Shown: in pieces, positions 5,154 through 38,225 of the stretch | Layout: the number at the start of each line of letters is the position of its first letter | Numbering within the stretch: the first letter of the stretch is position 1 | Assembly (NCBI GenBank): GCA_030141605.1 | Contig: JAQGDQ010000060.1 | Coordinates: 310,001-374,000 of the forward strand | Origin: Tubiluchus corallicola | Taxonomy: Eukaryota; Animalia; Priapulida | Direction: 5' to 3' | DNA: 64,000 nucleotides | The notes under the pieces: model-generated | What the model was told of the DNA's origin: nothing | Databases searched by the model: none | What the model saw: only the letters and a program-made list of their open reading frames with translations | Position numbers and translations under genes: made by a program

Positions 5154-5304
5154 AAGCCTGTTCAACTATTATGATGCGCATGTCGATGATGTCATCAACA
5201 AATGTTCTTGTTGAAGTGCCTATGTATAAAATATTGAAATAAAGGGGTGAGCTTTTATAATAGACATTTGACTACAAGACCATTGCGTTGATTAACTTCA
5301 CATC

Positions 5305-13075: not shown

Positions 13076-13155
13076 CGACAAAAAGAAAGAGCGTGAGAAT
13101 TAAAAACGGAGAAAATGAGGAAGATACGAAAGTAAAAGAGAGAGAGGAGGAGGAA
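12542..13155. repeat. Compound (GA)n purine-rich block with an internal duplication of 170-bp period
   Basis: Long GA runs; the atggacagagaggcagagagagtggg... block recurs at 12674 and 12844. Confidence 0.95.
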
Positions 13156-13665
13156 AGAGTGACCCAAAAACACTTCACCCACTGACTGCAGACAGCATGC
13201 AGACTTGAAGCTGTGTAGTTGCAAGTGCAATGCGGCTTCATTTGCTAAAGGCTGCTGCCTGCAGAGATGTTCAGCTTAACAGGGCTTCAAGTGTGCATAC
13301 TGAAACGTGTAGCCTACTAAACTGATACTTTTCAGTTTTAATCTGTATCAGGAATCTAGCAACCATGGACGTACCTTGTCTTCAGAAAAACCTTTTACAC
13401 GCGGACGTCAGACGTACGAATAGCCGTGAACCGCGTTGATACGAGGCTACAGGCCATTTGTTCGCCAATGGACCTGAAGCCAATGGACAATGTCTCATCA
13501 GTCAGATGACAATTGATGCAAAGTTACAAAATATCTACTCTATCTAAAGTTATAAAGTGTCTACTGTTGCTTCACTGTAAGAGCCCAAGAGCAAAACGTT
13601 GAAACTTCTAGTCAAATGCGGACACTTACACCTAACAGAAGCGAAATGCTGAAGTCAAAATTTGT

Positions 13666-14559
13666 ATGGAGATAAATGTGCATAACAGTATAAACCAAGT
13701 TGAGACATTTGAAGAAAGGCGAAAAGTACCCAATATGGATTCACTAAATGATCAAAATAAAATCGAAGTGGCTGATGATCCGTTTTCCTTGGAGTGGAAA
13801 ATCATTCTTGCCATGTCAATGGTCGTGTTTATATTAATGGCCGTTTTTGGAAATGTGATGGTCATACTCACGGTGTTACGACACAAGGGAATGCGGACTC
13901 GAACCAACCTGTTTATCGTCAATCTAGCAGTCGCAGATGCTTTAGTGGCCATTCTGGACATGCCCTTCAGTTTGACCGTAGTGATTCAAGGCAGATGGTA
14001 TCCAATGTCTGATGCCCTGTGCTCTTTTAATGCATTTACCATGGCGCTGTTTTTGATAGCTTCAATACATACGATGATGTACATAGCAATACACAAATAC
14101 ATTTCAATAAAACGACCGTTTAGTCATTTCATGACGCCCAAACGGATTCTTTTAATGATATTCGCCGTTTGGACATGGGCCGGTTTTATTGCTGCTTCGT
14201 TATTCTTTTGGACAGAAGCGAGATACAAACCGGGTGCGACCCAGTGTGGTCCAGTGATTCCAGTGACAAAGCGGTCAAGAGTCCATTCTTACATGGTCAC
14301 AGCTACGTGTTTCGTCGTTCCGCTGGTCATCATGACTTTTTGTTATTGGGGAATTTTTCTTGAGATTGGACGACATTCGGAACGGTTGAAAATACATTCT
14401 ATGTTCGATTCGGAACATGTCCTGGATCAGCAGACACGGATTACAAAAACTCTGGTTTTGGTGCTGGTGTGCTTTGTGTTGTGTTACATGCCATATTTCA
14501 TTTATTCAAACTATCTGAGTGTGGGACAGCATACTTTAATTCCACTGTGGGGAGCACTG
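13666..14559 (+). CDS. Class A GPCR, variable exon A (N-terminus, TM1-TM6, ECL3)
   Basis: GN (TM1), NLAVAD (TM2), Cys in TM3 and ECL2, HKY at the DRY position, W in TM4, P in TM5, FVLCYMP (TM6). Ends CTG|GTAAGT (phase 0). The Met shared with exon B is at 13735. Confidence 0.9.
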
Positions 14560-16442
14560 GTAAGTTATCACTATTTTAAAAATGGAAAATATGCAAAACC
14601 GTGAAAATGTCAGCAGAACAGCTAAACTGTACATGATACCTGCAATAAACACGATTCGATAGAAACAGTTGCGCATACTAGCAACAGAACTAACATTTTT
14701 GATTGATAGTCAAATTACTAATTGGGTAAAGATAGCTGAGTGGGTAGGGTGTGTCCTTAGCAACCAACATTAAATAACGCAAGCGTTGGTCAGGAAATAA
14801 AATCGTGATTGCCAAAAAAAAAAACTTCTGGATAGTTTCTTCTGGCAAACTTCTACCTACTTGGGCATTTGCACCAGTGAGAGAGACTGAAGCCAGTTTA
14901 TTTTGATCCGCAGATTGGTTAGTTGACAACACGTCACTTCTTTTATTTGAATCTGTTCATACCTTGCCTTGTTCACTCTGTGTTTCTTCCACAAACTGTA
15001 CCTTTGTTTTTCCACTGCTGACCTCCTCAAATGTACCCCACTGATTTATTGCTAAATGTATTTCCTGCGCGCCCTTACAATTACTATCAACAAGCTATTC
15101 TTTGTCTAGTAGGAAAGTCACTGCTTTATAATAACTGGATGTGGTTAAACCATATCAATGTGTAGATCCAGTGAATATCCAGTGGTGAGAAGCAGAGACA
15201 CGTTACTATCTACCCCACCCCCTTTTTCAATGGATCCACCAATTTCATCTGAATGTGCACCTGTATCAACTGTTAAGTTCACATAGCATGCATGTGAAAT
15301 ACCCAGATTGCTGTGAGTTTATGACACGTTGTCGAAAAGGTGTTACTTTCCCATCACATTTCGATGAGATGTTAGACAAAATTTCGAATCTTATTTATTG
15401 TTCGGCTGAGACTTAATAACTGTCCTAAGTAGAAACAAAAAAAAACTATCTAAGCGCTTTTGATGATGTTTCATCAGCCAAAGAATTTTACAACAAACCA
15501 GCCCACTGAACGTAGCAAAAGTAAGGGGTTGGCAAATATCTCTGACACTTTCTTCGCTAGAAGTACATATTCTTTTGGGCCAAATGACAATAGTAAAATG
15601 TGTAAATTTGTCTTATGCCCAGTAGTTGCTGCAAAATCTTCTAATGGAACCAAGAACCTTCTGGAAAGAACTAACCAGCTGTATGGAATAGCTCGATTAT
15701 GAAGTTAAGCAATGCAACAGCGTACTGGTAAATGGATAGAACACTCAAACGTCTTGCTAAAATCATCAATTCTTGAATAAATTAAGAAATGTTTCACAAA
15801 AAGTAGCAATTTTCACCAGAAAACCATTTCTTTACAAAGAGATCTTTGAAGGTGGTTCTTAATTTAAACATAGTGTAATAAGGACAGAGTTTGTCGGCTT
15901 TGTTGAAGAACCATGCAAACACCTACTGTTTTCCTAAAAGAGCAAACAGAACAATACATGCAGAAGTGATCGAGTCTACTTATCAAATGGATATATGGTT
16001 GTAGTCTGCGCCGACAAATTAAAGTTATCAGTTTCTGAGTGGGGTCGAGGCTAATAATTTTCCACATAAGCTTACCAGGAATATTAGTGCCTGTTGGCTC
16101 ATTGTTAAACAGTCGAATATCATCCGTGGAAGATTTCATAGGTTTAAAATCTAAGAGCTAAAGAGTTCTCTGCAAACCTGTTAACTTTGTATTTACAGGA
16201 AATAGGAAATAAACCCATTAAACCAGGAAACAAACTGATTCCAGTTATTGTCAATTGGCAGGTGAGACGGAGGTTTAAAGTTAGGAAACAGTGAACTTTG
16301 GTTTTACGTTCTTTCAATAATTCTTAGCGTTTAAATCGACTAAAGCAACTGAATAGTTATGTATGTTATCAAGATTACTAGTAATAGCAGCATTAGTCGT
16401 ACAATGAGTTTACATAATTTAACGCCGTAAGACTAACGCCGT

Positions 16443-17279
16443 ATGAAATTTACTAGTATGGATCCATCAAATAACCAAAGCAAAATTAAGGAGGCTGACG
16501 ATCCATTCTCCTTGGAGTGGAAAGTCATTCTTGCTACGTTAATGGTCGTGTTTATATTAATGGCCTTTTTTGGAAATGTGATGGTTATACTGACAGTGTT
16601 AAGGCACAAGGGAATGCGGACTCGAACTAATATGTTCGTGGTCAACCTGGCAATCACTGATGCCCTCGTGGCCATTCTGGACATGCCCTTCAGTTTGACC
16701 GTAGTGATTCAAGGCAGATGGTATCCAATGTCTGATGCCCTGTGCTCTTTTAATGCATTTACCATGGCGCTGTTTTTGATAGCTTCAATACATACGATGA
16801 TGTACATAGCAATACACAGGTACATTTCAATAACACGGCCATTTAGTCGTTTCATGACGCCCAAACGTATTCTTGCAATGATATTCGCTGCTTGGACGTG
16901 GGCAGGTTTCATTGCTGCTTCTTTATTCTTTTGGACGGAAGCTGGTTACAAGCCGGGTTCGACCCAGTGTGGGCCTGTGATTCCGCGAACAAAACGATCA
17001 AAAATTCATTCTTACACAGTGACAGTTACTTGCTTCGTTATTCCATTAGTGATCATGACGTTTTGCTACTGCAGCATCTTTCACAAGATCCGGCGGAATT
17101 CCAGACGAATGAAAACGAGTACGAGAACGGATCCGAATCGTACGTTAGATCAACAGACACGTGTTACCATAACCCTGGTCTTAGTGCTACTGTGTTTTGT
17201 TATATGCTACTTGCCATATTTTATTTACGCAAACTATTTGGGCATAGGAGGTACATTGATTCCATTGTGGGGTGCATTA
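16443..17279 (+). CDS. Class A GPCR, variable exon B (paralogous to exon A)
   Basis: Colinear with exon A; NLAITD, HRY, FVICYLP. Ends TTA|GTAAGT (phase 0) at the same protein position (IPLWGAL). The shared Met is at 16458. Confidence 0.92.
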
Positions 17280-17477
17280 GTAAGTACTGTTTTATATTTC
17301 TTTTAGCTGATATCTTGGCAGGATAATTTCCTTTTATTAAAGGGCTTAAAGCATGAAGACAGATTTTAACCACAGTATCAAGATTTAATAAACCGAAATA
17401 GCAATAATTGTATTAAGTGAATGTGTAAAATGGATTCTATAATAGTTATGCGATGGTCAACAATTTCGGTCTGACTC

Positions 17478-17692
17478 AGGGCTTATTTCAGCCTAGGCGA
17501 GGCCCGGGGAAGTGGGCGTGTGAGGCCCCATCAGGGGGGGGGGCGCTACCATGGTTGCGCCCAGAAAAATTTTGAACTGTTAGAACGCCGGAGGAGCTTT
17601 TTCGAAGCAAAAAAATGTTACTTTGGCGCGAGGCCCCCTGGAGGGTGAGGCCCCGGGGAAGTATCCCCACTTCCCCCCTTGAAATAGGCAGT
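17478..17692. mobile_element. Short GC-rich hAT-like MITE in the GPCR intron
   Basis: Imperfect TIRs cagggcttatttca / tgaaataggcagtg; cggtctg occurs on both flanks (possible degraded TSD). Confidence 0.45.
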
Positions 17693-18720
17693 GCGGTCTG
17701 TACATCCATCTTGGTCGAGGAGCACCTATGTTAGAAATCAAAGCTGTAGTAACCTCTGCCTCTGTAGTAACCGCTTTTATACCGACATTCCAGGTCAACT
17801 GGCTTCTCACACTATGTGTAGGTCCAAACAAGATGTCCTGTTAACCTGGAAATAGGGGGCACTATGTCTGACCTGACAACAGGTGCTTCCGTAACAGTAT
17901 TTTCTGTTGCTCAAGACTTACGCATTCATGAGGGTTTCTTCGATACATTTATATTCAGTAATTACCTGTCATTTTTAGAAAGAAAGTGTCGAATAGCACA
18001 GCAGTGTATTCGTTTTTTGTGTCTGTTCTGCACTTTAGAGTTGTGCAAAGCAGAAATCCGCCAGACGGCAGTAAGTTATAATTTAGCATTTTAGCTTAAA
18101 GAGAAAGAAAAAGGAAATTTTAAGTATCTCCAAAGAGCTTTTCGTGAAAGTTACATTATGCTTATACTTACGTATTTGAAACTGAAAGATACACGTAATC
18201 GGGGAAAAGAACATTCTTAATAATTTAAATGTGCGCGCCATCTGGTCAAACAAATTTCATCGTCGTCCCAGTATGCACCACTGATTCACCAAAAACATAT
18301 TATTGATCTTATTGGCAATATGATGTAATTTAAACTTACGAATGCTTTCGTTATTTTTTTCATACTTGCCTAATGTTATCTAAACTTGTTCCAAATGACG
18401 TGACTGCGCCCAACGTTCATCGCGGGAGTGTTAAATTTACAAGGTTTATACAACATGACTTAATAACTGCAGCGTTGCTGCAAACTCAAGCTCTGTATGC
18501 AATAAGACAACATATAAACAGCATAAAGTTTCAAACTTTATTTACGAAGAGTGTTTTCTTGTGCTTTAAGTTTTTTCCTTTATTTCAAATCCTCTTCCAA
18601 GTTGTGAAAGAGAATCCTCTATGAATAACACAGAAGATATGTCTCTGCCACGTTTGGTTGCTTATACATCCTTTCCTAAACCAGAGAAAAGCTGGGGCTG
18701 CATAACATATACGCCGGAAC

Positions 18721-18817
18721 GAAGCCAACAATCTTGTGGCCACCCATCCACTTACTAAGCAGGCACAGTGCTCGTTGACTTACTGAGCGCTAAGTACACA
18801 CCGTCACCACTCAGCTA
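18721..18817 (-). mobile_element. 5S rRNA-derived repeat fragment (SINE3-like)
   Basis: ggccacccatccacttactaagcaggcacagtgctcgttgactt resembles the reverse complement of the 5S internal control region (GGTCTCCCATCCAAGTACTAACCAGGCCCGACCCTGCTTAGCTT). The adjoining motif gtacacaccgtcaccactcagctat recurs at about 46066-46090. Confidence 0.55.
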
Positions 18818-18867
18818 TGTTCCTGTATAGTACGCTCCTGTATAATTACCTAATATTGTTTGAACAG

Positions 18868-18994
18868 GCTTACTGGTGTGGTTATGCTAACTCTGTCTGT
18901 AATCCACTTATCTACGCGTGGAGGAGTCCCTCATTTCGTCAGGGATACCTGGAGATTCTCTGTCGACGGAAGTATACACACAGCGTAAGAGATG
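18868..18994 (+). CDS. Class A GPCR constant exon: TM7 (NPLIY) and helix 8
   Basis: Acceptor tttgaacag|GCT in phase 0; encodes AYWCGYANSVCNPLIYAWRSPSFRQGYLEILCRRKYTHSVRD; ends G|GTAAGT (phase 1). Confidence 0.92.
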
Positions 18995-19154
18995 GTAAGT
19001 ATGTGGGCGTAATGTACATCTTATCTCCTACGCTAAGTAGCACAGTTCCTGTTGCGAATAGGTTCCAATATTGTAAGGCAGTTAACTAATATTATTTTCC
19101 TTGGGTGAATGTAGTTGACAGCTCCTACAGGATGTGCAGTTGCCTTCCAAATGA

Positions 19155-19376
19155 TTTTGAACATTCTGCTCTCATACTTCAATTTATTTTAAACATTCTG
19201 TTCTGATACTTCAATTTATTTTGAACATTCTGCTCTCATAGTTCAATTTATTTTAAACATTCTGTTCTGATACTTCAAATTATTTTGAACATTCTGCTCT
19301 CATACTTCAATTTATTTTGAACATTCTGCTCTCATACTTCAATTTATTTTGAACATTCTGGTCTGATACTATAATT
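19155..19376. repeat. 32-bp minisatellite, about 7 copies
   Basis: Unit ttttgaacattctgctctcatacttcaattta. Confidence 0.9.
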
Positions 19377-22105
19377 TGTACCGGAGTTATGGCCACCTAA
19401 GTGTTTAATTAAAATCTGGAGGTGTTTAAGCCATTTTCTTATAATCGGCCTGCTACATTTACAACACTGTTTTCTAGTTCTGTTAACAGGAATTCAGGAA
19501 GTACCGTATTGTTGGTTTCCCAAGACTTCCTTGTAGTGATTATGGACTAATAATGTTGTGGCACATAAAGTATGTTTACATAGACATGGTATGATCAGTC
19601 CTGAGGGATATTGCTCTACCGTTGCATCATAAACTGCAAATAAGTGCTATAAAGCTTGATTATAAAAGTGACGGCATTTGCCATAAAATTTGTTATTAGA
19701 ATGTAATACCACTTAAACCTAGTTTGCATGTTCGTCCGTCTAGCTACTTGTGGATATATCGAGCATGTACATCTTGTTAGGTATTCATGTTTCTGTTTGC
19801 TTGTTTGTTTGTCTGTCTATGTGTTTGCTTGTTTCTTTGTTTTTATGTGTCTGTATGGTTGTTTGTTTATTTTCCTACACAGGCGTGACGTGTGTGTACT
19901 TCAAGGCGTACGTAGCCCTAATGTGCTTAGCCAGGAAGCGTGGGATGGGGGATAGGGTAAATAGTGTACGTAGAAAACAGTGCAATAAGATATTAAGTAC
20001 AAAGCATTTGAAGCAACAAATTTAATGAGTTATTCAATGGACACAGGACAAGAGAGGGACATGACCAAAATTGACCGACTCGGCTGCGTTTAGCGGAGAT
20101 TAAATGTGTTTTGACAGAGGAGTAATGATCAAGTCTCAAGTGAGTCAAAAGATTATTAGGTTGACTGGATCCATTAGACAATAATCAGTGAGCAAGTAGA
20201 ACAAACAGAACAGATTAATAGTCTAAAAGAACTTAATTCCAGAATTATAACAAGCACGAACACCTATGATATTAAGGTAAATAGGAAAAGCGAAGTTACT
20301 TATGCACGTCATGTATTATTCACTCATTTTAGTGTGTGCCTGGACACCTAAAGTCCTTTTCTTTTCATAATAGCTTTCCTGTGTCAACAGGTCTAATGCA
20401 GTTTACAGGCTTGTGTCCACACTAAAGAGCTTGACAGCAAAACAGCATATGAGTAAGCCAGTTATCAGGTCTGTGGTCGCGAAGAACCTGTTCCTTACCG
20501 GTGACATAGTTATACCAAGGCTTCTTGGCCATTAAGATGACTGTAGTTTCTGATGGTTCAATAGATTGCGTTTCCAGCGCTGAAGTAATTCACCCAGACT
20601 GTCAGTCACAATTTTTTCAACTTTTTAACTCCAAATTAGTTTAAGTTTCTGAAAGTATTTATCCAATTAAGTTGAAATTCGGTGGGATCAAACAGGGACG
20701 TGGTTTTCGCTCAAGGCTAAAAATTTGTTAGAAATCCTTAATAAGTTAATTAACTAGAGCTGTTTAATTGGTGAATTTTAAATTTCAATTTCCAATTTCA
20801 AATGTCTTTATCTAATTGAGTCGAAATTTCTTATGAGGATTAGCTAAGATGTCTTTGGTTCAAAACAAGAAATTTGTAGCAATCTGTTAAATTAGTTAAA
20901 TAATTAAAGCTGCTTAAACCTGTTTAATTAATTAATTAATTAATATTAAATTGGTTGAAATCCCATGTTCCCACAATTCAATTGAGCTGAGATTTGTGTT
21001 CAGATCTCGTTAAGCTGATTCTATTATTTATTCAATGTGTTTGTATCTCTCCCTGTGACATCGATATTATAGGAGCGCTTGTTTCTATTTAAATATTCAG
21101 TAGCGCCTAAATGCATCCGTAATCAATAGATGTAGTTTTTTCTTGTAATTATGTAGGTGCAGGCCTGTGTAATATGTAGTGACAGGATCTTCTTAACGTA
21201 GGTGCTTGTGGCAGGGCCGGAATCTATCTAATTAGATAGGTTAATCCTTTGAACCGCAGAGGTATTACGTTCAGTTATATTCGGATGAGTAAACGTCCTC
21301 CCTCTAATGCTGGAAAGCAGTATTGCAGAAGAAACTGTTGATTGTGGCGTGTTTCTACACGCTTGGGTGTTCAATTGGGTTCAAACATGCACCGCAGTGC
21401 AGTGTAGCGATATGTAAGTGGGGTAAATGGCTTCATATGCGTTTCGTCGTGCATTCCTTTACGCGCTGACTGCAGTTTAAGTTTCACGCCCTGCAGTATG
21501 CTGTCGGTGTTTGTTAATGAGCTGTGTAATGTATCCGTTTCTCTGTTAATGACCTGATAAGATTCGTCACTTCTGTTCGCCTGTGTTAGATCTATTTGAT
21601 CTGTGAGATCTTTACCTTTTAAGCTACGACTCCATGTGCAGCTAAAGCATAATGCGTGATCTGTGATCCGTAATGCGTGATGCGTATTGACTGTTTCCAT
21701 TTGTCCGTAAACGCTATGCGTATTAGTAAAGCTCACGGCGCTCTTTCCGTCATTTTTGGCCGCTTTTCGTGAAAATTACAAGCAATTTTTGGAAAATTTG
21801 TCCCTGTCGAAATTTAAGCATGATAATTACAGCTGCGCCATTAGCTTATTATTGTACTATTACATGGAAAAGAAAGTACAGGTTTTGTGTGAGCAAAATT
21901 TTATAAGGGAGAGAACAATACGACAGGCATCATCATTTAGTGAAAGAACTGAAGTTAGGTGCACAACTACATGCTTCTTCCACCTTTCAAAAATTCGAAT
22001 AGAAAAAATATTATACGTCCTAAAGTGACAAAAACTCACATAAGTAGAATTTGCAGAAGTAGCGTTTGTACAAGTTTGGTTTATAGGTGTGGGTTGGGTG
22101 TTGTA

Positions 22106-23170
<1,065 letters not shown>

Positions 23171-25187
23171 TGTCTTGGCACTAGTCACGTGATGACGTTG
23201 ATTTGCCCTTTGCGTGCAATAAGCTGCGTTGTTCGCGCAATTTAACTAAAAACGTCCGATAAATTTTCTTTCCATTTTCGTTTTCTTTTCGCTGGTCGGT
23301 CTAAAGCTATAAGATTAGATTGCAGTATGGCGTGAACGAATGATGTAACACTGAGCTCTAGGGATTGCTTGCACGGCGGCACGCTGATATTTAAGGACTT
23401 ACTTCGAACTATTCATGTCTGTGTCAAACCAATGTGACGCTTTTTCTGTGTTTCGTGAGCTCCTGTGTTTGTTAATACTGCAAATCTAATAAAATTAAAT
23501 TACAGTATGGCGTGAACGGATGACAATAATGCAGAACTGTTGGAATTATTTGCATGATGGCACTGATAATTAAAGGGGAAGAAAGGGCAATGTTAAAGTA
23601 TGGCCCAAAAAACTTTCCATACCAAGTTATATTACTTAGCATTACGCTTAACCTGTTTGAAAGACTTGTGCAACTAGAAAAGAAAATTTTTTCAATTTGG
23701 AATGTTTTCACTAACTGGTAAAATGTCGTTGACTCGCGTTCCCAGTGAACACCAAAAAGGCATCTTTAATCTTATCGACAAGATTAAAGTTTGCTTAATG
23801 AGTGAAGAGTGCGCTACGAATGCTCTGATTATTTTTTCAAACTACCCAATGTTTTAAAACTTCTTTTAAATAACTTATTGTCAAAATGGCTGCACCTAAC
23901 GGCCGTCGAGGGAGTTTAAATTTACAAGTTTTATGTTCGTTACTGCCAACGCAAGTCCTGTATACAATAAGATAACATGTAAGTGGTACAAAATTTCAAG
24001 ACGAATGTTTAAGCTTTATGTAAGTGAAGGATTTTCTTGTGCTGTAAGAGCTTACTTCAGCCTGTTCATGACTAGGTCAAACAAAGTTGGGGCTATTTCT
24101 GTATATTGAGCTAACACGTCTGTTAATTACAGTAAATCCAATGCTCGCATTGAAGAATATTAACTCTTTACCCTCTGTGTCTAATAGTTCATGTATAAAA
24201 TTGTGCAAAAATACCCGAATGATCTGCTAGTTGTGGTTTGGTAGGTTGTGTGTTTTAACTTCCTGTTCTGCATTGCAGGAACAAATCAGCTTGCGGTACT
24301 AACTGGCTCTGCTGTAATTCAATACGCAACCGCCGTTTAACTCTTTACTCTATCTTTACTAACACATGCTAGTTCCTAATTACAGGTGAGATGTGTGTTA
24401 GTGGTGTGATGCCACTGTCTTTGTGTTGCACATGTCACGTGATATGTTTCCACACCTCGAGTTTTGTGCATTGTCACGCTGAAGCATGATATTAATGCTG
24501 AAACAGTGACACGGTTTACTAAACTGGTAGTGTGTCATTTTTCTAGTCTGTATTATAAAGAGTACTATATGGTGATCTACCTGAACACGAATTCTATTGT
24601 GTTGTGCAGTATGTAAAGTAGAAAGTTCTATTTTATTCCCCACTGTCATTAATTTTTTTCCGTTATTATGATGACCTCATCAAATGAACAGGAGTTTTCC
24701 AAAACGTCCGAAGTACTTACATTTGTGTAGTTCAGTAAACGGTTCCCAGAGGCGCTGCATCCTAGAAAATTATATTAACAACCTAAGACTAATACCAACC
24801 ATTCGCCTGAGCACAGATTCTAGGAGAATAGTTCTTACCCTCTGTTATCCCTGACACCATATATAATCACTGACAAGAAAGGGTACCCAATGACATAAGG
24901 GGAAAAAACTTTTATGTTTAAAAGAGATATGTAAATCATTTGTAACGATTTCATTGCAAGAGTACTGCCCAAACTAGTGTCATGCCCCAGTAGTAGTAAT
25001 AACATATTCATAAGCCCTAAGCTTCATCAAAACATGTCTACGCTCTACCAGTCCAACTTTGCAAATCACTGTTTTAGGATGAAAAATGCTGCTGTTAAAA
25101 TGCATTTTTACCGTGTTATTTTTATAAGAATTGGAAAGTACGCACGCTGCCAAAGCTTGATAGCGATAGCGGGCTACATTAAACGGT

Positions 25188-26075
25188 TTTAAACCATGGA
25201 TGTAAAGTTTAAACAATGGCTGTAAAGTTTAAACCATGGATGTAAAGTTTAAACCATGGATGTAAAGTTTGAACCATGGATGTAAAGTTTAAACCATGCA
25301 TGTAAAACTTAAACCATGGATGTAAAGTTTAAACCATGGATGTAAAGTTTAAACCATGAATGTAAAGTTTGAACCATGGATGTAAAGTTTAAACCATGGA
25401 TGTAAAGTTTAAACCATGGATGTAAAGTTTAAACCATGGATGTAAAGTGTGGACCATGGATGTAAAACTTAAACCATGGATGTAAAGTTTAAACCATGGA
25501 TGTAAAGTTCAAACCATAGATGTAAAGTTTAAACCATGGATGTAAAGTTTAAACCATGAATGTAAAGTTTGAACCATGGATGTAAAGTTTAAACCATGGA
25601 TGTAAAGTTTAAACCATGGATATAAAGTTTAAACTATGGATGTAAAACTTAAACCATGGATGTAAAGTTTAAACCATGGATGTAAAGTTTAAACCATGGG
25701 TGTAAAGTTTAAACCATGGATGTAAAGCTTAAACCATGGATGTAAAGTTTAAACCATGGATGTAAAATTTAACCATGGATGTAAAGTTTAAACCATGGAT
25801 GTAAAGTTTAAACCATGGATGTAAAGCTTAAACCATGGATGTAAAGTTTAAACCATGGATGTAAAGTTTAAACCATGGATATAAAGTTTAAACCATGGAT
25901 GTAAAACTTAAACCATGGATGTAAAGTTTAAACCATGGATATAAAGTTTAAACCATGGCTGTAAAGTTTAAACCATGGATGTAAAGTTTAAACCATGGAT
26001 GTAAAGTTTAAACCATGGATGTAAAGTTTAAACCATGGATGTAAAGTTTAAACGATGAATGTAAAACTTAAACCA
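25188..26075. repeat. 20-bp minisatellite, about 44 copies
   Basis: Unit aaaccatggatgtaaagttt, head to tail with no spacers. Confidence 0.95.
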
Positions 26076-26149
26076 ATCATTTGTATGTATTCCTATACTC
26101 CATCTTCTTTAATAATCCAGTAAAAGAGAATAACTTCATAACACCATAA

Positions 26150-26320
26150 GGCATTATAATGAATACTGCGCGGCTTATTGTAGAACGGATGTGGCAAAAC
26201 AAGTCAAGTATACTGACCCAAATCTTTGGAATAAAATTCCCACAGAAATTAGACAAGCCAAGTTTCTTAACAGTTCCAGAAAAGAAATACTAAAAATTAT
26301 TTATTTTCACATTACTGATG
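26150..26320 (+). mobile_element. L2/CR1-group LINE 3' relic
   Basis: RTDVAKQVKYTDPNLWNKIPTEIRQAKFLNSSRKEILK matches the RT..K..KY.GP.LWN.IP.EI....L..FK..LK terminal motif. Confidence 0.6.
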
Positions 26321-26739
26321 ACAAACAATATCTTATAAAGTATTTTGCTACGAGGCTACAGAGTGTCAACATTCCAACGAAACAAAATTGCATAAAAAGC
26401 TTATCAGCAAAAAATTATCATAATTATCATGATTTAATTTACTTTTGTATACCGTTAGTTTTAGTTCTACTAATCCATCCTCCCCTTCAGGTTTCCTCTA
26501 ACCACTGTCTGGTGAGACGTAAATCTGGTCTTTAGTGTCCCTAACCCGTTTGCACTTCTCTGTCAGGATGACAAGGTCCTCTTTAATTCTGGCAGTACAA
26601 ACGAAATATTATTTATTTTGAGTCTGTTGTGCAGAAATTGAATGTTTTTTGGATAAATTTTGTGATTGTATTTTGTTTGTTGTGGAATATAAATATTACA
26701 GTATTACATGATCTACGAAAGTGCAATTGCCAATGTTAA

Positions 26740-27075
26740 ACATTTAGATTTAGATTTAACATTTTATTTCAAACTTTACAAACTTCATATACAGATCACA
26801 AATTAATACAAATAATACAATAAATCATGACACACAACAATAACACAAATAACAATTAACGATATAACAAACTACGCCAATGACGTCTCTATTACATAAG
26901 AAAAGTTTACATCACTGTTTAAAATGTTCTTGCATATAAAATTTCCACTCTTATTCAGCCTGACGTATAAACTGTATGCACATTTTCTGTGAATCACATC
27001 AAAATAAATACATGTAATATTAAGTCTAGTAGAAATATATCTAGCGCTCGTATCATATGACAAGTTAAACAGCTT
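26740..27075 (-). mobile_element. LINE 3' end relic with simple-repeat tail
   Basis: Minus-strand peptide LFNLSYDTSAR...RKCAYSLYVRLNKSGNFICKNILNSD, followed by AATAAA and an (AAATCT)n-like tail. Confidence 0.45.
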
Positions 27076-27487
27076 CCGTGTTACTCTGCCTTTCTTACAT
27101 TCTACTGTTCTTTTCTACAGCATACGTTCTAGATGCTCCCATCATGGCCATCAAGCGCATAGCATCGTCTGCTTCTCTTCCTGCTATCATCAAATCTATG
27201 GATCATGATGTCACGCGGCGGGTTGGGGTGAGAAATAAATCTATGACGCTTTCACAGAAGCAGCTCATAAGCGTTCTGGAGCAGCTACCGAGAGAGATGT
27301 TTCGAGACAGTAAGATTAGCTGCATGCTTCAATAATTAAAGCAGTACTGCATGCAACAACTGCATAGCCTCGTACCATGCATGATCTGCTGTTTGCTTTC
27401 CTGTCACATCCTGAATACATTTATCATATTTTATCATTTCTTGTATTAGAAAATAATGTACACATAATAGCTATAGTAGTACTTTAA

Positions 27488-27600
27488 CCGGGTGGTGTGA
27501 CTCAACGGTAGCACGCTCGGGAGATCACGAGTTCAACTCGCGACCAAGTAATGCTAAAGACTTAAAATGATACCACTGATTTTTCGACCAAACACGCAGG
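27488..27600 (+). mobile_element. tRNA-derived SINE fragment
   Basis: Box A-like tgactcaacggta and box B-like gagttcaactc, followed by a ctaaagacttaaaatgatacc core-like motif. No full cloverleaf. Confidence 0.55.
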
Positions 27601-27844
27601 ATCGGGTAATAATAATCGGGACCACCTTGGAAATAAGTATTGAGTTACTTATCCCTGGACTATGCCGTAAAGAAAATTTAAATAATTATTATAATAGCAG
27701 CAGTGAAGAAGGCAAGAGGGCATTGAAGAACAATTGTGATTGTGGATCCAACATTGACAGTATATTAATTCATTTGTGCTAGTGTTCTTTCTTGAAACGG
27801 AAGTTGCCACAGAAAGATGGTGCAGATCCAGAAGAATAATAATG

Positions 27845-30838
27845 TTACCATAGATGAGTGTAAAAAATGGCACAGAGACAAAGAAACCATAGTAACAATA
27901 CTACAAAGAAAACTGTCACAGAGACAAAGAAACCATAGTAACAATGCCACAAAGAAAACTGGCATAGAGACAAAAAAACCATAGTAACAATGCTACAAAG
28001 AAAACTGGCATAGAGACAAAGAAACCATAGTAACAAAGCTACAAAGAAAACTGGCATAGAGACAAAAAAACCATAGTAACAAAGCTACAAAGAAAACTGG
28101 CATAGAGACAAAGAAACCATAGTAACAATGCTACAAAGAAAACTGGCATAGAGACAAAGAAACCATAGTAACAATACTACAAAGAAAACTGGCACAGAGA
28201 CAAAGAAACATAGTAACAATGTTACAAAAAAACTGGCATAGAGACAAAAAAACCATAGTAACAAAGCTACAAAGAAAACTGGCATAGAGACAAAGAAACC
28301 ATAGTAACAAAGCTACAAAGAAAACTGGCATAGAGACAAAAAAAACATAGTAACAATGCTACAAAGAAAACTGGCATAGAGACAAAGAAACCATAGTAAC
28401 AATGCTACAAAGAAAACTGGCATAGAGACAAAGAAACCATAGTAACAATGCTACAAAGAAAAACCATAGAACAAACAAAAACTGGCAAACAAAAAACCAA
28501 AACAACACAAAACCAAAACAAAAAACCAAAACTGGCATAGAGACAAAAAACCATAGAACAAACTACAAAGAAAACTGGCAAACAAAAACAAAACAATACA
28601 AAGAAAACTGGCTAGAGACAAAGAAACCATAGTAACAAAGCTACAAAGAAAACTGGCTAGAGACAAAAAACCATAGTAACAAAGCTACAAAGAAAACTGG
28701 CATAGAGACAAAGAAACCATAGTAACAAAGCTACAAAGAAAACTGGCATAGAGACAAAAAAACCATAGTAACAAAGCTACAAAGAAAACTGGCATAGAGA
28801 CAAAGAAACCATAGTAACAAAGCTACAAAGAAAACTGGCATAGAGACAAAAAAACCATAGTAACAATGCTACAAAGAAAACTGGCGTAGAGACAAAGAAA
28901 CCATAGTAACAAAGCTACAAAGAAAACTGGCATAGAGACAAAGAAACCATAGTAACAAACAAAAAAACCAAAACAAAAAACAATACAAAGAAAACTGGCA
29001 TAGAGACAAAGAAACCATAGTAACAAAGCTACAAAGAAAACTGGCATAGAGACAAAGAAACCATAGTAACAATACTACAAAGAAAACTGGCATAGAGACA
29101 AAGAAACCATAGTAACAATGCTACAAAGAAAACTGGCATAGAGACAAAGAAACCATAGTAACAAAGCTACAAAGAAAACTGGCGTAGAGACAAAGAAACC
29201 ATAGTAACAAAGCTACAAAGAAAACTGGCATAGAGACAAAGAAACCATAGTAACAAAGCTACAAAGAAAACTGGCATAGAGACAAAGAAACCATAGCAAC
29301 AAAGCTACAAAGAAAACTGGCATAGAGACAAAGAAACCATAGTAACAAAGCTACAAAGAAAACTGGCGTAGAGACTAAGAAACCATAGTAACAATAATAC
29401 AAAGAAAACTGGCGTAGAGACAAAGAAACCATAGTAACAAAGCTACAAAGAAAACTCTCATAGAGACAAAGAAACCATAGTAACAAAGCTACAAAGAAAA
29501 CTGGCATAGAGACAAAGAAACCATAGTAACAAAGCTACAAAGAAAACTGGCATAGAGACAAAGAAACCATAGTAACAAAGCTACAAAGAAAACTGGCATA
29601 GAGACAAAGAAACCATAGTAACAATACTACAAAGAAAACTGGCATAGAGACAAAGAAACCATAGTAACAAAGCTACAAAGAAAACTCTCATAGAGACAAA
29701 GAAACCATAGTAACAAAGCTACAAAGAAAACTGGCATAGAGACAAAGAAACCATAGTAACAAAGCTACAAAGAAAACTGACATAGAGACAAAGAAACCAT
29801 AGTAACAAAGCTACAAAGAAAACTGGCATAGAGACAAAGAAACCATAGTAACAAAGCTACAAAAAAACCATAGAGACAAAGAAACCATAGTAACAAAGCA
29901 AAAAAACCATAGAGACAAAGAAACCATAGTAACAAAGCTACAAAGAAAACTGGCATAGAGACAAAGAAACCATAGTAACAAAGCTACAAAGAAAACTGGC
30001 ACAGAGACAAAGAAACCATAGTAACAATATTACAAAGAAAACTGGCATAGAGACAAAAAAACCATAGTAACAAAGCTACAAAGAAAACTGGCATAGAGAC
30101 AAAGAAACCATAGTAACAAAGCTACAAAGAAAACTGGCATAGAGACAAAAAACCATAGTAACAATGCTACAAAGAAAACTGGCGTAGAGACAAAGAAACC
30201 ATAGTAACAAAGCTACAAAGAAAACTGGCATAGAGACAAAGAAACCATAGTAACAATAATACAAAGAAAACTGGCATAGAGACAAAGAAACCATAGTAAC
30301 AAAGCTACAAAGAAAACTGGCATAGAGACAAAGAAACCATAGTAACAAAGCTACAAAGAAAACTGGCATAGAGACAAAGAAACCATAGTAACAAAGCTAC
30401 AAAGAAAACTGGCATAGAGACAAAGAAACCATAGTAACAAAGCTACAAAGAAAACTGGCGTAGAGACAAAGAAACCATAGTAACAAAGCTACAAAGAAAA
30501 CTGGCGTAGAGACAAAGAAACCATAGTAACAAAGCTACAAAGAAAACTGGCATAGAGACAAAGAAACCATAGTAACAAAGCTACAAAGAAAACTGGCATA
30601 GAGACAAAGAAACCATAGTAACAAAGCTACAAAGAAAACTGGCATAGAGACAAAAAACCATAGTAACAAAGCTACAAAGAAAACTGGCATAGAGACAAAG
30701 AAACCATAGTAACAATAATACAAAGAAAACTGGCGTAGAGACAAAGAAACCATAGTAACAAAGCTACAAAGAAAACTCTCATAGAGACAAAGAAACCATA
30801 GTAACAAGGCTACAAAGAAAACTGGCGTAGAGACAAAG
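27845..30838. repeat. 46-bp satellite, about 65 copies
   Basis: Unit gctacaaagaaaactggcatagagacaaagaaaccatagtaacaaa. Confidence 0.97.
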
Positions 30839-31804
30839 TGAGAGTTTGCATACTACTGTTCTAGTTGTCATGCTACACAGAAAAGTGGCAATGAAACGAA
30901 GTAGAAGTACTAATGCTACAGTTGTCGTGTTACGCAGAAAAGTGGCATGGAGAGGAAGCAAAAGTTCTACTGCCATAATCATCATTGCTAAAGAGAAAGA
31001 TGGCATAGAAAAAAGTAGAAGTACTACTGCCATGGTTATCATGTTACACAAAAAATGCGTACCATAGTGATTGAATCCTTCAGAAAAGCATATGTATCAG
31101 AAAAGCAATTTGGAGAAATGAGACACTGGTATTACAATGATAAACAAAAAAGTAACACAGATACGAAGAAACATAACAGTTAGAAGCGTAATTGTGCTCA
31201 GTAGCAGATAGCAGCCAACGCCAACTCTGGTCAGCGAATGGACAGGTTAACTGCTCAGGAAACTATTTCCATACAGTTTCATTGCCATACTGGCTACCGG
31301 TAATTCACCTCAATGAGGAAGGACGTTTGTAGTTCTTTTTAGCACACATCTGGTTGCGGCTAATATGACTTCCTAATTTAACGTAACAGTATAGGGTTTC
31401 GAAAACATACTTTCAAGGATTAAGGCAAAATCGTTTATATGGCTTCAGATACATGTAAGTAAGAATGTTGTTTGCATGCATAAAAAATGGACAAGAATCA
31501 AGGCCATTGAAGCAAGACAATGGAGGGTGGGGAGATTGATGACAATTTACTAACTGTTCAAGCAATAACATGGTATGTGCTAGGCATAGCAGAATTTTTG
31601 TTGCATAGTAAATCTTGTGAAGTTGCATTGTACGGTGAGGTTGTGGTGCATTGTGCTCACAACAACAACGATGACGACGATGACGACAGGACACCCCGCT
31701 TGGGCCCTAATTAGGCCTATAATGTTTTGGCAATACCTGTTAATTATTACCTTAGACTGTGACTAAGGCCAAACGTACTCGACTACATTATGACTTTTTA
31801 CAAT

Positions 31805-32000
31805 ATATATATATATACACCATCCTCCTGGTAGATTTTCATCTGTCAGCCGGCGAACACTTGATAACGTCTCTCCAGGTGTCTCTGTCTTCATACGTCT
31901 TCTCCTCCTCCAGTTGTGTTCGCCATGAGTTACTTGAGCAAAAAGTACTTCAGTGACTTGCTAGGTCTATCCTGAAGGATTTGGTCCACAGCTCCTTATT
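31805..32000 (-). mobile_element. RTE-like LINE 3' tail relic
   Basis: Minus strand reads ...EDRDTWRDVIK... followed by a (TA)n tail. Confidence 0.4.
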
Positions 32001-33163
32001 TGAATATTCGGAGCACCCTGGCTCGTGAGCCAGGGGTCCCCCATCCGCCACCCGGGGGATGCGCCCGGTAGGGGTTTACTCCCCCCCAGGACTTTTTACA
32101 ATGTCAGGCAATATTGTGAAATTGGGTATTTTACAGAATGCCAACCCCTTTGTGGAGTGTCAAAACAAACTAGGTAAAGTATCTAAAATAGTCACTTCTA
32201 CAATTTTCTTAGATATAATTACACATTATGCAAAAAATTGCTTAGGCAAAATGCGTAATTCTTAGATTACGAATATACCTTTACTAGGCATTTTATAGAA
32301 TGCTGAATAAATTGATGATGAAGAGACCATTTATTTATTAAAACAAATGTATCCACTTTACCCGAAATGTGTAGGTATTAATACGAAAAGCCTAGGATTT
32401 TTAGAAAATGTCTAAATTTTACACATTGCCTGTCAATTTTACATATTGCATGTGTTATTTAAATAGCAGCAGCTTATTATAGACAGTTCTGAAATAAATG
32501 TTGTAATTTCACTGATTTGCCTCAGTGCACTTAATCCATTAGTTGAGTAACATGTGTCTAAACCCAGACATTACAATGAGGCTTCGATACGACATTTCGT
32601 GTCAGCTTCATATCTGTCTCACTTTACAGACCTAACAGACCTAATTTCCTTTCACATAAGGGTATTGACGTACTTTATTAATCACGTAATGTAGACAGTG
32701 CAATATAGTTACCAAGGAGATCTCTCAGACTTGATAGACTTAACATCAGTCCATGTTCACAGTAAGATTCACTCGCAATTTCAATCGACAGTAATGAAAT
32801 CTAGAATCAGGCCAACTGGATTTCCCGCCAACTAATGAAAAGTTGAGCATTCTATAAAAAAAGTATTAATACGGAGCTGCAGCTAAATGCCCCGAAAAGC
32901 CGGCGCTAAATAAGCTCTGCAGGGGTGTGAAAGGGCATATCATCATCTTGCATGCTGATTGGGCAGCCAACGAGAATGACCGACGTTGTGCTTGATGTCC
33001 ATTTTATTGCAGACTAACTAAATGCCCGAAGTTTTTCCGGCCAGAAAACTGAGAATAATTATAGTGATGTGGCATTGGATGGTACTGTTCCACCACATCC
33101 ATCAAATTGCTGTTGCAGATTTGGTGATAATCTTTAGTTTAGCCCTGCCCGGCCACTCTCTAC

Positions 33164-33560
33164 TAGGGGTGAGAATTCTCTACCAGAAAGCGAATTCGAG
33201 TCGAACCGAATTTGTGACTTTCGAATTCGAATCGAACCGAACTTCAGTGTTTCGAATTCGAACCGAATTCGAATTGAGACTGAATGATTTTCGAACAAGT
33301 TTTCGAACCACCAGTAAAAATTAGTCTTACAAAGATCATGCATATCACTAGATTTTGTTCTGCAATAAAACGACTAGTAATTTGTTTAAAGTTGTGCGCA
33401 GAAATCACAGCTAAATTATGCTAATTGTATGATGTTTCAATCGTTTTAATGATCAGGAACATATGTGATTGAAGTGCTGAATTATTCGAATCTATAGTGT
33501 TGGATTCGAATCGAGTTCGAAGTAAAAAAGCTCGTTCGAATCGAATTCTCTCTTCTCTCA
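33164..33560. mobile_element. Non-autonomous DNA element with TTCGAA/GAATTC-rich subtermini
   Basis: Starts taggggtgagaattc and ends gaattctctcttctct; dense ttcgaa palindromes at both ends. Confidence 0.5.
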
Positions 33561-33952
33561 CATTTTAAATATGTAATTATAACTTTTATTTTTGTTCAAT
33601 AACACTCCACCCTGCGTCATTGAGTATGCCCCTTAAAACCTGCCCTTATTTATAATACGTTACCCGAGTTGCAGATTGGAGTCTGGCAGTTTGAGAGAAC
33701 ATGATAATGATGGATGATGTAAACATGTCACACCCATTTTGTCAAACAGATTCACAAGTTAACACCAAAGCAAATGTGTTGCTTTTCTTTTTTTCGAATT
33801 GACAAAATAAACCACTCAAGCAAATTACAATGTCGAGTATGAGAAAGCGAAAGAGAAATTTGTTGAGTTGGCAGAGAATTCTACCAGACGTCTCACATAT
33901 TTGGAGTTTACCTTGGCCTTAGCCTTGCATCCCGTTTACATGATCAGTGTAC

Positions 33953-34423
33953 TAATGATGGGCGATTAACAGGTTAATCAAATTAATCCGGAATGCAATC
34001 ATGTATAAATCGATATAATTATCGATTGAACAGTAACTCAATTAATCAAGAGAAAAATATACGTGTTACACACTGACAAAAAGGCAGTGTTTTAGCACAG
34101 ATAAACGGAATCCTTGCACTTTTTCTTCGTTTTTCTTGTCTTAACAATGCGCACGATTGCAAACTATTGCGTAGTGATGTGGTAAATACCGTAGTTAATG
34201 AGTTAATGAATGTGCGTGTCTATAAAAATAGTTTGCGAGTAGGAAAAGTGCAGATAACAAGGAAAGCCATGAAAAAGTTTATAGGCTGTATTTTTCAGTA
34301 CTGCAAGATTTGAAAAATATGGCTAAGATACTAAAGAATTGCCACAAAAGATTAACCGCCACATTGAATTACAAGAACAAGATTATGATCGAATTACAAT
34401 ATTTCAAAATTAATCCATCACTA
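33953..34423. mobile_element. hAT-like MITE
   Basis: Termini taatgatgggcgattaa and ttaatccatcacta are near-inverted. No TSD seen. Confidence 0.45.
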
Positions 34424-36821
34424 CCTGAATTTCAGAGAACTGCATTTACCAAGTCATATGTACTTTTCATTAGATTTTCATAAAGATTTTCATAAAACTA
34501 TAATAATAAAAAGCTTTATCGATTAAACAATGAATTTGGTAGATGGTCAAAAACTCCAGCAGGAAATAAACTTCGTTCATGTGGCCAAATACAAGACGAG
34601 GAGCAAGTTTTGCTAAAATGTCATAGAGTGAGTTAGTTTGAGATCTGAGTTTTGTCTTAATAATGAATATGAATAATGAATAATGAATAATATACGAATT
34701 AATGAATATGGGAGATGATAAAAAGTTGCGTGCATTTGCTTACTGTGCATTAAAAGAATACCAAGAGATATGAGATGTAATTTTGTTTGTAATGCACGAT
34801 AACCACCTAATCGTTTTCGTGTGACTAGCTTTCTTGTTATTTGCGTTTTTGATGTTGTAATATTTATTTTTCCTTGGTTTTGGAACAGCTGTTACTTTAG
34901 GGATGAGTAGCTTTTATAAACTATTTGTTTCACCCCAAATTCGTAACTTTAATGCACTTGTGGCATGGTCGACGGTAATATATTTACTTGAAGTCTTGAA
35001 TAATATACTTCTAAAGATCTTGACATACTAGAAGTTTGGGGTGCACATGGTTAGTATACACTCTGCAACTCGCTAACTGGTGATAATATTAGAGATTATG
35101 AAAGGAGGTGAAACAAGCAAAACAAACATGGTGGGTGCGGGCTAAAAACACAGATTTACAGATAGGTTAGGTGAGATGGCACCCTCATGGTACAAACAGC
35201 AGAGGGTGCTACTGCTCGTAAGTTATCTCTAGAACTAGAAATGATTTCTCTGATATAAGTTATGGTTACAGTTGACAAATGTCATGATTGACAAAAGGTC
35301 ATGATTACGGTTGACAAATGTCAATAAATATCTAATCTAATGTAATCTACGAGAGGTTCCCTTGTTTCCAATGTAATCTAAATTGCACGGTTATTTACCT
35401 AAACTATCTAAGGTCTGGAGATCTTCACATAGTAATAACAAATCTCCCATACGACAATGGTAATCTGGTGAATCAGTGGTGGCAAGTTGGCAACTCATTT
35501 AGTTGTATGTAGATTAATACATGTATAATATGAGAACGCCAACAAGTTTTAATGCCAGGGTTATCAATCTAACAATAATTATTTCTATATGAGGTGACAG
35601 ATTGAACGAGCGAATGAGTGCTTAGTTTTCCTAGAAACGTGCTGCCTTGTGGCGACATCTGTCGCAGAAATTACTATCTGTTTTTGGCATGCATTTGCCG
35701 AAGTTCCCGTTCTGTGACGTTGCGTGTAAATTCCATAGTAAATCCATGTATTGTGGCGGCCTCTTCTGTTCACAAACAAAACTACATTCCTTGCCTCTGT
35801 TCACAAACAAAACTACATGCCTTACCTGGGCAAAAAGTCTTTAACTAACTAGTTACATTTAATAATATCTAAACACGTTAGTATGATACTGTTTGACCTG
35901 AACAGCAGTCTTTTAAATCGACTCTTAAATTCCTTGTTTAGTTTTAAGGCTAACATCATGTTTTAGTGAGTTAATTACTAAGATTTATATACAAAAGAGG
36001 AAAGGTATCCAGTGGGTGTTATCGCTGCAAAGTTAAGCAACGCTAGCTTTAGTTAGTAAATAGATGAGTGAGTACCAGGGAAACTGCTCCTACATGGCTT
36101 AAGCTAGTCCTGGGCTACTTCACTTATTGACGAAGGGTGTATATGCATGCAAACATAGCAAAGTCGCCTCTGCAATTTCAGCCTCATCTTAGCTTTTCTC
36201 AGCCTAGGTCCCCTCAAGTTTTGTTAACATTTGGTAAAAAAGCTTATTTTTTCACTACGGTTGTGTTGAAATGAGCTAATTCGGTTTGCAATAAATAACA
36301 AAATAGAGATATTTTTTAGAAAATATACAAGCAAAGATAGCTAGTCTAGTTTATATAAAGAACTTGCAGTAAGTATACTTCAAGGTATGTAAATGTTGCT
36401 GTAATATATCACGAGTAAAAATATTCAAGACGGGTGCGGGCCAGTTAGATAGTGGCTCCATCTGAAGGACTCCATTATTTCATTAGCCTAGAGACCCCAA
36501 ATGGTCATAATCCGGCCGTGCCCCCGTATTTTTGCATGTTTTTCTTTTTTACTGAAAGGCAGCATAATGATTTTCTTACAATTGAAATTTTTGTTACTTT
36601 TCGCATTTGTTTCTGTTTGAATTGGTTAGTTATATGCTTTCATATTTGGTATATCATCATTGCATATTTTTCATTTTATCATAATGCTTCGTTTTCAAGT
36701 TTAATTTCTTCCCATATAGATTTACGTTAACCATTGATTTTCTTATCTTACTTCATAATTATATTACATGTTATAATTAGCAGCGCTACAATTTTTTATC
36801 ATTTACACTAACCCTATAAGG

Positions 36822-36990
36822 GTGTCTGACTTGATGACCAATTGGTTTTTCACTACCCTTTCTCCTGCACCCCCTAACTCTTTCCTTTATGCATAATTTA
36901 TTCTGATTAATTAATAATTACAGCAATAATAGTCTATTTGTATTCTGGTGTAAATGAGGAAATAAATAAAAATGTCTATGTCTATGTCTT
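36822..36990 (+). mobile_element. Retroposon 3' UTR fragment with (ATGTCT)n tail; inverted second copy at about 57047-57213
   Basis: Both copies share tgatgaccaattggt...cctgcaccccctaactctttcc...gtattctggtgtaaatgagg...aaataaaaatgtctatgtctatg. Confidence 0.7.
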
Positions 36991-37196
36991 TGTGATCATC
37001 TTTGAATCTTTTTACCACACATATAGTATAACTAAATAAATAATTAAATATATTAAATAATAAACGGATAATTAATTAAAAATATTTTATCCTGTAAATG
37101 CACAATTCTGTTTTTATTATTAATGTCAACATGGAGAAATTTTTAGTGCAACCTGAATGCTGGCTGTCTTACAAAAATTGTTTTTCAAATTTTCAG

Positions 37197-37903
37197 AATC
37201 AACCATTCCCAGTTCAATTAGAAAGCTCACCCGACGATTAACACGACGCACACACGGGAGCCACACATCGAATACCAATGCAAAACGTCGCATACATCAA
37301 AGCGAGCGACGACGTAGCAGCACGTCACCACATCTGCACGTGGAGAAGATCCGCACAAGCTCCATGCCAGAATTATGGAGGAATGAGGATGAACTTTCCA
37401 CCAGTCAGCTTCCTGCAAACAAAAACTATTCTTCAGCAAAAAATACCTTTGACACGCAAACAAGCGAGGAGCTTCAACAGTCAACAAATAGAAGCCCAGA
37501 GGTAGGAAATGGCAGCACATATAATGAAAATGTTAAACAATATGTAAAAGAGTCTGAGCATGAAACAGGGCAATGTCCAAAAGTTGCTCCTCTTGCTGCC
37601 AGAACACAGGAAATGCATGTAGCATCAAAGCAGGATTCTCCTTCAAAATATGCTTCTCCTCTTCATAGTGAAAAACTCGACACCAAACAAATTACTCCTC
37701 TTACCAAAGAACAAGCTGGCAAACAATCAAAATCTTCTGTGCAAGTTTCACCAATCCATCGCCAGATGGCGCACATCACCACGATGGATGCTCAACTTTT
37801 GAATGTTCGCGTTCTCCCGCTTACAAAATCAGACATCAAGCAAAATTCCAGAGAAGATATCAGCTGTGGCAAGCACGAGCAAGCGGCAAACAAAATTAGT
37901 TAG
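37197..37903 (+). CDS. Probable terminal exon of the GPCR: about 235-aa Ser/Thr/basic-rich cytoplasmic tail
   Basis: Strong acceptor tttttcaaattttcag|AA completes the phase-1 codon from 18994 (G|AA = Glu). Non-repetitive open frame to TAG; AATAAA signals follow at about 37956-38143. Joined products would be 575 aa (A) and 556 aa (B). Undetected small exons in the 18-kb intron cannot be excluded. Confidence 0.72.
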
Positions 37904-38225
37904 CGATAAGATCTGTCACGTCTTGTCTTCTAAATCAAGGCTAATTGGTGCTTTAAATAAAACAAAAATGGAATAGAGTAAAGTGAAAGGAGATTTAAAA
38001 CGAATTACGCTACTTACTTGGAGCTTTAAATGCAGGTTATAGGCAACAAGAAGAGACCAGGATATTAATTAAGGCAAAACTCAGCTGCAAAAGCATAAAT
38101 AAATGGCTGGTTGTTGTAATCGTAAAATTATTTTGTGAATAAAAATGTCTGTTATTAAAATACTGTTAATCAGCGATGTAGTTTACTTCTAAAGAATTGT
38201 TATTGCATATACTATTCAATATATG

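Follow-up and report, generated by a model that had tools for sequence, protein, structure and literature searches.

We analyzed 64,000 nucleotides (nt) of the Tubiluchus corallicola genome (contig JAQGDQ010000060.1, positions 310,001 to 374,000, forward strand), hereafter called the window, which contain a gene for a G-protein-coupled receptor (GPCR) of the rhodopsin-like class A. Two paralogous coding exons, A and B, each encode the N-terminus and the first six transmembrane helices (TM1-TM6), and a single exon downstream of both encodes the seventh (TM7). We predict, at a probability of roughly 0.7, that A and B are both spliced to this TM7 exon as alternative front ends. The initial annotation had likewise proposed that one locus makes two receptors; selection on both exons and the presence of one TM7 exon in the window speak indirectly for this proposal, which we consider partly supported overall.

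Both variable exons are free of stop codons (A, 894 nt and 298 amino acids [aa]; B, 837 nt and 279 aa) and end with the same residues, IPLWGAL, followed by GTAAGT in phase 0. The coordinates, frames and splice signals first given for A, B and the TM7 exon were rechecked and agreed with ours (Table 1). Within the window, the locus consists of tandem paralogous coding exons with same-phase donors and one downstream exon set; a search with the family profile detected no third TM1-6 copy there. The Pfam family 7tm_1 matched exon A with 153 bits and exon B with 160 bits against a curated cut-off of 30.5, which places both in the class A GPCR domain. A structure model of A (predicted template-modelling score, pTM, 0.77) contained six long helices, followed at residues 293-297 by a short one, the start of the seventh, and resembled opsins and adrenoceptors (TM-score about 0.7-0.8). 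In the model of a full-length homologue (P0003), which has seven helices and helix 8, TM7 starts four residues ahead of the intron site. The onset of TM7 in this homologue and the short helix in the model of A indicate that the variable exons contain the first TM7 turn, which is identical in A and B. Each exon had been described as TM1-TM6 plus the third extracellular loop (ECL3); the TM1-TM6 content is correct, and the first turn of TM7 has to be added.

Table 1. Features of the receptor locus (positions within the window)
Feature	Position	Strand	Remarks
TATAAA, possible promoter element (weak)	13551..13556	+	115 nt 5' of the first exon A ATG
Exon A	13666..14559	+	N-terminus, TM1-TM6, ECL3, first TM7 turn; second in-frame ATG at 13735; phase-0 GTAAGT donor
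Identical 151-nt tract, exon A side	13945..14095	+	residues 94-144, TM2-TM3
Candidate 63-nt exon	16199..16261	+	AG acceptor, CAG/GTGAGA donor; 5' of B; predicted by simple consensus scoring
Exon B	16443..17279	+	equivalent to A in extent; second ATG at 16458; position 3.50 is Arg; phase-0 GTAAGT donor
Identical 151-nt tract, exon B side	16668..16818	+	partner of the A tract
Constant exon: TM7 from 7.38, NPxxY, helix 8	18868..18994	+	CAG acceptor; 127 nt; phase 0 in, phase 1 out
189-nt coding exon following helix 8	27121..27309	+	phase 1-1; AG/GT ends; open frame; loose end of a run X2 contig
Second predicted exon between 27309 and 37197, 84 nt	32090..32173	+	phase 1-1; open; simple scoring; no run X2 support
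Terminal coding exon	37197..37903	+	phase-1 acceptor; Ser/Thr-rich C-tail; TAG stop; AATAAA at 37956

The number of TM7 exons in the window was one by motif, tblastn and profile, as had been claimed for NPxxY at 18868-18994; this count applies to the 64-kb window alone. The pattern [ND]PxxY had five matches in the six frames, and receptor context was present only at this exon. A TM7 profile based on 55 distinct segments of the family scored 71 bits there, compared with 2.5 for the runner-up and 9.0 for the best of 15 shuffles. Two weak TM7-like matches were rejected: that at 35726 scored inside the shuffle range, and that at 44684 (7.4 bits versus a maximum of 7.0 in 15 shuffles) contained in-frame stops. 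We also used a sequencing run (X1) in which 0.27 of the window's words were present and which behaves as genomic DNA, apparently of another individual. An X1 contig across 18736-19015 showed zero substitutions. The X1 depth was very high at 17342-17947 and 18150-18755, which are dispersed repeats within the intron between B and TM7.

It is very unlikely that A belongs to another complete gene copy, with TM7 and tail exons that either dropped out of the assembly or are located beyond the window and joined by long-range or trans-splicing. The restriction of the TM7 exon count to 64 kb leaves room for such an origin, X1 contigs leave part of the interval between A and B unspanned, and ticks and horseshoe crabs have copies including TM7. 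However, the window contains no N, and a collapse would require near-identical copies, whereas 44% of synonymous sites differ between A and B, whose flanking DNA is no longer alignable. X1 contigs also track the window over 14178-14762 and 15336-15805, with no X1 joint between A and B among the matches listed.

Sequence comparison shows that both A and B are under purifying selection. Over 261 codons, the nonsynonymous rate (dN) was 0.111 and the synonymous rate (dS) was 0.654, a ratio of 0.17; the initial annotation had put forward this ratio as a check on exon A, and the value is not near 1. The dS reached 1.3-2.1 in the 3' third. In simulations of neutral decay (2000 copies of A, with an indel rate assumed at 5% of substitutions), copies free of stops and frameshifts made up 52% at 0.01 substitutions per site, 0.25% at 0.1, and 0 of 2000 at 0.2. 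At the 48 columns where A and B differ, the Priapulus residue was found in A at 16 and in B at 15; the end branches in the tree were 0.14 and 0.13, and A retained 53 and B 54 of the 61 family-conserved columns. Between X1 and the window, 4 of 536 covered bases differed in exon A (3 synonymous and 1 Val to Ile) versus 11 of 203 in the intron after A (Fisher P = 0.00025). Within a single X1 contig, the counts were 3/382 for the exon and 11/203 for the intron (P = 0.0009). Exon A is thus about seven times less variable than the neighboring intron, and no X1 difference was listed in its donor. Across the 45 bases past this donor, 4 differed, of which 3 were nonsynonymous, as expected of an intron. 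The X1 test is limited to A, with exon B covered over its last 17 bases in the pieces listed. The dN/dS ratio, the simulations, the equal branches, the contrast between exon and intron, and the read-through differences together speak for A being under selection today as a spliced exon.

These data bear on two explanations in which A does not reach TM7. In the first, A would be a dead-end partial duplicate, formerly selected and no longer spliced to TM7, and B alone would make the receptor. As the distal copy, A is obliged to skip B; a recent loss would leave no trace, given the simulated copies still intact at 0.01 substitutions per site, and conversion from B would renew part of A. We nevertheless judge this explanation unlikely: the exon is far less variable than its intron in X1 and its donor is kept, the two branches evolved at equal rates, and the more ancestral third intracellular loop (ICL3) sits in A, not in B (21 and 16 of 35 residues match Priapulus, respectively). 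In the second, A alone would give a six-helix protein by read-through of the donor to the stop at 14604 and intronic polyadenylation, and this protein would assist B as a chaperone or act on it as a dominant-negative partner. Truncated GPCR isoforms exist, the frame stays open for 14 codons beyond the donor, and AATAAA is present at 14644. However, such hexamers are common at 37% GC, with seven between A and B, and the read-through codons vary in X1 as the intron does. The retention of a strong donor at the homologous residue and the identity of the first TM7 turn in A and B, which is expected if both join TM7, also make a six-helix product highly improbable.

In the preferred reading, that of two alternative front ends, a tandem duplication of about 2.8 kb (ATG to ATG) would have copied the upstream region, the large first coding exon and its donor. 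Either A or B would then be joined to the TM7/helix-8 exon and the shared tail. Each copy may have its own promoter, an arrangement we slightly prefer to a common 5' untranslated exon with mutually exclusive splicing. The A transcript would pass B as an intron and take the next acceptor at 18868, in the manner of UGT1A. With a variable 5' part and a common TM7 and tail, the isoform can be selected by promoter choice. Simple scoring found acceptors upstream of both A and B. Over 13100-13665, where the weak TATAAA lies, X1 differed from the window at 1 of 526 covered bases, consistent with constraint or with a shared haplotype. The predicted exon at 16199-16261 could be a 5' untranslated exon of B or a chance prediction.

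Several observations weigh against this reading. No read or contig joined A or B to the TM7 exon. The predicted acceptors upstream of B (16199, 16328 and 16457) could trap the A transcript. The probability of at least 3 synonymous changes among the 4 in exon A was only 0.05. Two TM1-6 copies were present in 0 of 31 related loci, most of which were a few kilobases long. When 101 family proteins with TM7 were compared, 24 pairs shared an identical C-terminal stretch of at least 60 residues, and none of these pairs had the exact layout of the window. A second TM7 exon may also lie beyond the 64-kb window.

We then compared A and B with respect to function. They share an identical tract of 151 nt, a length reached in 0 of 20000 codon permutations (largest, 76); this tract is likely to be the result of gene conversion. 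The ligand pocket, taken as 25 standard positions numbered from alignments, was alike at 24 of 25 positions, with a single difference of Ser or Ala at 6.55. In contrast to the flanks (84/100), residues 228-262, comprising the end of TM5, ICL3 and the start of TM6, matched at only 16 of 35 positions (P = 0.00003). This loop was more alike (49-94%) in every one of the 35 family pairs whose flanks are 70-90% identical; the 35 were drawn from 741 family pairs and are not independent. The B loop has 9 Lys/Arg and 2 Asp/Glu and is also richer in Ser/Thr, compared with 5 and 5 in A; it is A that is closer to the ancestral loop. Position 3.50 is Arg in B and Lys in A. Lys occupied this position in 40 of 40 aligned homologues, and 165 proteins with the family motifs comprised 148 with Lys, 3 with Arg and 14 that were not scorable.

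In class A receptors, ICL3 and the region of 3.50 contact the G protein. Given this general knowledge, the near-identity of the pocket and the divergence at ICL3 and 3.50, the exchange of A and B is likely to alter coupling or expression more than the ligand. The two receptors would share a ligand, or have similar ones, and diverge in their coupling to G proteins or arrestin or in the site of expression. The exchange had been described as a swap of six helices, which overstates it: the pocket is near-identical, TM2-TM3 is 100% identical over 151 nt, and the divergence is cytoplasmic. Two points also count against our preferred reading. Pocket identity need not mean selection, because 10 of the 25 pocket positions lie inside the converted tract, and ICL3 lies in the least homogenized part of the exon. 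A broader and more doubtful picture is that promoter choice sets the six-helix body, conversion keeps the ligand side while ICL3 and 3.50 diverge, the same ligand acts through different G proteins in different cells, and the TM1-6, TM7-helix 8 and tail modules are reused elsewhere (alternative TM7 in Lingula, alternative TM1-7 in one tick). If this were true, the family would be a natural set of helix-swap chimeras. The A/B pair itself would be a natural experiment, with a common TM7, helix 8 and tail, a near-identical pocket, and differences at ICL3 and 3.50 (Lys or Arg).

The downstream exons were examined with X2, a second run, only guessed to be RNA and about 90-95% alike to the window. 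The TM7 exon is in frame with the terminal exon at 37197-37903, as the earlier exon map had it, giving products of 575 and 556 aa; the exon at 27121-27309 had been overlooked. An X2 contig on 18919-18992 continues for 130 letters unlike the intron, and 20 letters of this loose end match 27121-27140 with 2 mismatches, a match found in 0 of 100 shuffles. Thus, the sole transcript-like contig runs from the TM7 exon to 27121 and not to 37197. With this exon included, the products would be 638 and 619 aa. It is possibly a cassette, and its 62-aa product matched no Pfam family. Because seven homologue isoform pairs, chosen among the pairs with a shared C-terminus, vary in an optional insert placed at the end of the helix-8 exon or immediately behind it, direct skipping from 18994 to 37197 may also occur. 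The join of 27309 to 37197 was not seen in X2. An X2 contig on 37887-37962 differed from the window at 7 of 76 letters. No X2 contig was found on A or B (at 85% likeness) or at the 37197 acceptor (at 80%), and these blanks count as no evidence. By eye, the tail at 37197 begins in a way similar to the tails of mollusc and brachiopod homologues. Minisatellites occupy the introns 3' of the TM7 exon and the region behind the gene, at 22236-23175, 25188-26075, 27863-30838 and 38539-39868, with units of 26, 20, 46 and 60 nt, respectively.

Next, we examined the family to which the receptor belongs, recognized by the motifs MRTRTN and HKY. The best match was Priapulus caudatus XP_014672688.1 (59% local identity and 64% over the core), followed at about 40-55% by chelicerate, myriapod, brachiopod and mollusc proteins. 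No relative closer than this one Priapulus protein, whose gene model lacks TM7, was found with B among proteins of near and longer lengths or when A was compared with 50% representatives. Used alone as a protein query, the TM7 exon retrieved a single candidate, which was not closely related. A 42-row tree (A, B and 40 of 100 collected proteins) placed A and B as sisters (100/99) with Priapulus as their sister (100/100). The same relationships were recovered from residues 200-298 alone (14 rows), with A and B as sisters (100/98) and Priapulus next. We infer that the duplication postdates the split from P. caudatus; conversion could have made A and B look younger. Asp3.32 marks aminergic receptors and Lys7.43 marks opsins. 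Here, Met126 aligns with Asp3.32 of the beta-1 adrenoceptor, and 7.43, counted back from the NPxxY proline in 18868-18994, is Tyr. Because both marks are lacking, the most fitting label for the receptor is orphan class A GPCR, and the automatic database names of the family, which are inconsistent (octopamine, melatonin and melanopsin-like), are misleading. The ESM Atlas gave generic class A names only, and no ligand was found for the family.

At one related locus (L002), TM1-6 is encoded by a single exon, which ends at the residue where A and B end and is followed by GTAAGA, and TM7 by another exon 2.4 kb further on. Many family gene calls stop or read through at the same residue. Together, these observations indicate that the TM7 intron is ancestral and that only the large exon was duplicated. 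Other family loci have additional introns inside TM1-6. A P. caudatus gene model (P0001) is without TM7 and carries unrelated sequence from the family intron position onward; it is probably an incomplete model and possibly reflects an A-like exon.

Isoforms of homologues were also inspected; the Lingula and Amblyomma cases are annotation records. In Lingula anatina, isoform X3 has TM1-6 and a tail as in X1, X2 and X4, but a different TM7 segment (13/31 identical). These records (P0063 versus P0094, P0102 and P0103, on one scaffold) have two TM7/helix-8 segments, the mirror of the layout in the window. For Amblyomma americanum, RefSeq isoforms X1 and X2 have 16 differences over 258 positions of TM1-6 and 2 over 34 of TM7; their final 119 residues are the same. 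This pair (P0043 versus P0011) could be haplotypic; an X2-like copy also occurs in a second assembly. The accessions concerned include XP_013405596/597 for Lingula and XP_077513533/534 for Amblyomma. The isoforms of R. microplus were rejected as a parallel, since their TM1-6 is shared and the difference lies only further downstream. Near-identical doubles in Ixodes, Dermacentor and Uloborus, which may be haplotype artefacts, were left uncounted.

As precedents for the layout, the initial annotation had named clustered protocadherins, UGT1A and sDscam, the last of which reportedly has a variable-exon/constant-exon design; the closest ones, insect gustatory receptor (Gr) loci and the GPCR genes ETHR and OAMB, were missed. 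Grs are ion channels, not GPCRs. Insect Gr loci (Drosophila Gr39a; beetle DponGr38a-d and TcasGr214) have tandem long alternative N-terminal exons and shared C-terminal exons (PMC3011837, PMC6720082). The likeness extends to a seven-helix receptor with a variable front and a shared end, to exon birth and loss, and to splicing that is partly hypothesized from genomes in both papers, as in this locus; their arrays reach up to 30 variants, whereas there are two here. In UGT1A and the clustered protocadherins, each variable first exon has a promoter of its own, the constant set is single, and gene conversion takes place among the variable exons (PMC3325998). They share with our locus the variable first exons, the constant set and gene conversion. 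They differ in having many exons and a variable part that sets substrate or adhesion specificity, whereas the variation here is mainly on the effector side and the promoters are only putative. Arthropod ETHR (ETHR-A/B) has alternative 3' exons from the end of TM4 to the C-terminus (PMC8175484), and the isoforms of Drosophila OAMB (K3/AS) diverge from ICL3 on and signal through Ca2+ or cAMP (PMC2650798). Both are class A GPCR genes in which alternative exons exchange several helices, but as a mirror image: their N-terminal part is common and their 3' exons are alternative, whereas in Tubiluchus a variable 5' part precedes a common TM7 and tail. Within its own family, the locus shares 64% core identity (Priapulus), the TM7 intron and the optional exon after helix 8, but no member was seen with two TM1-6 exons on one TM7 exon.

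A survey of 236 human tandem-exon events includes 40 that are N-terminal; the word GPCR is absent from its main text, and its supplements may list a receptor (PMC9741552). By title or start of abstract, no GPCR with variable 5' helices was found in the open-access literature, a scope outside which most subscription papers fall, and the literature on priapulid GPCR splicing yielded no paper on this receptor by the same fields. The locus is thus a case of the known variable-front/constant-end design, in a direction less usual for GPCRs, in an orphan class A GPCR and with predicted splicing; its scope is two copies in one lineage. If the prediction is true, a class A GPCR has an arrangement of variable front and constant end that has until now been reported in insect taste receptors, UGT1A and protocadherins. 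It would also be a warning for annotation, as gene callers would label exon A a truncated gene or a pseudogene. Upstream of the locus, a frame at 5296-11025 (+) runs uninterrupted for 1909 codons, has WD40 and HEAT-like matches, and ends 2.6 kb before A; it is an unusually long single exon or an intronless gene.

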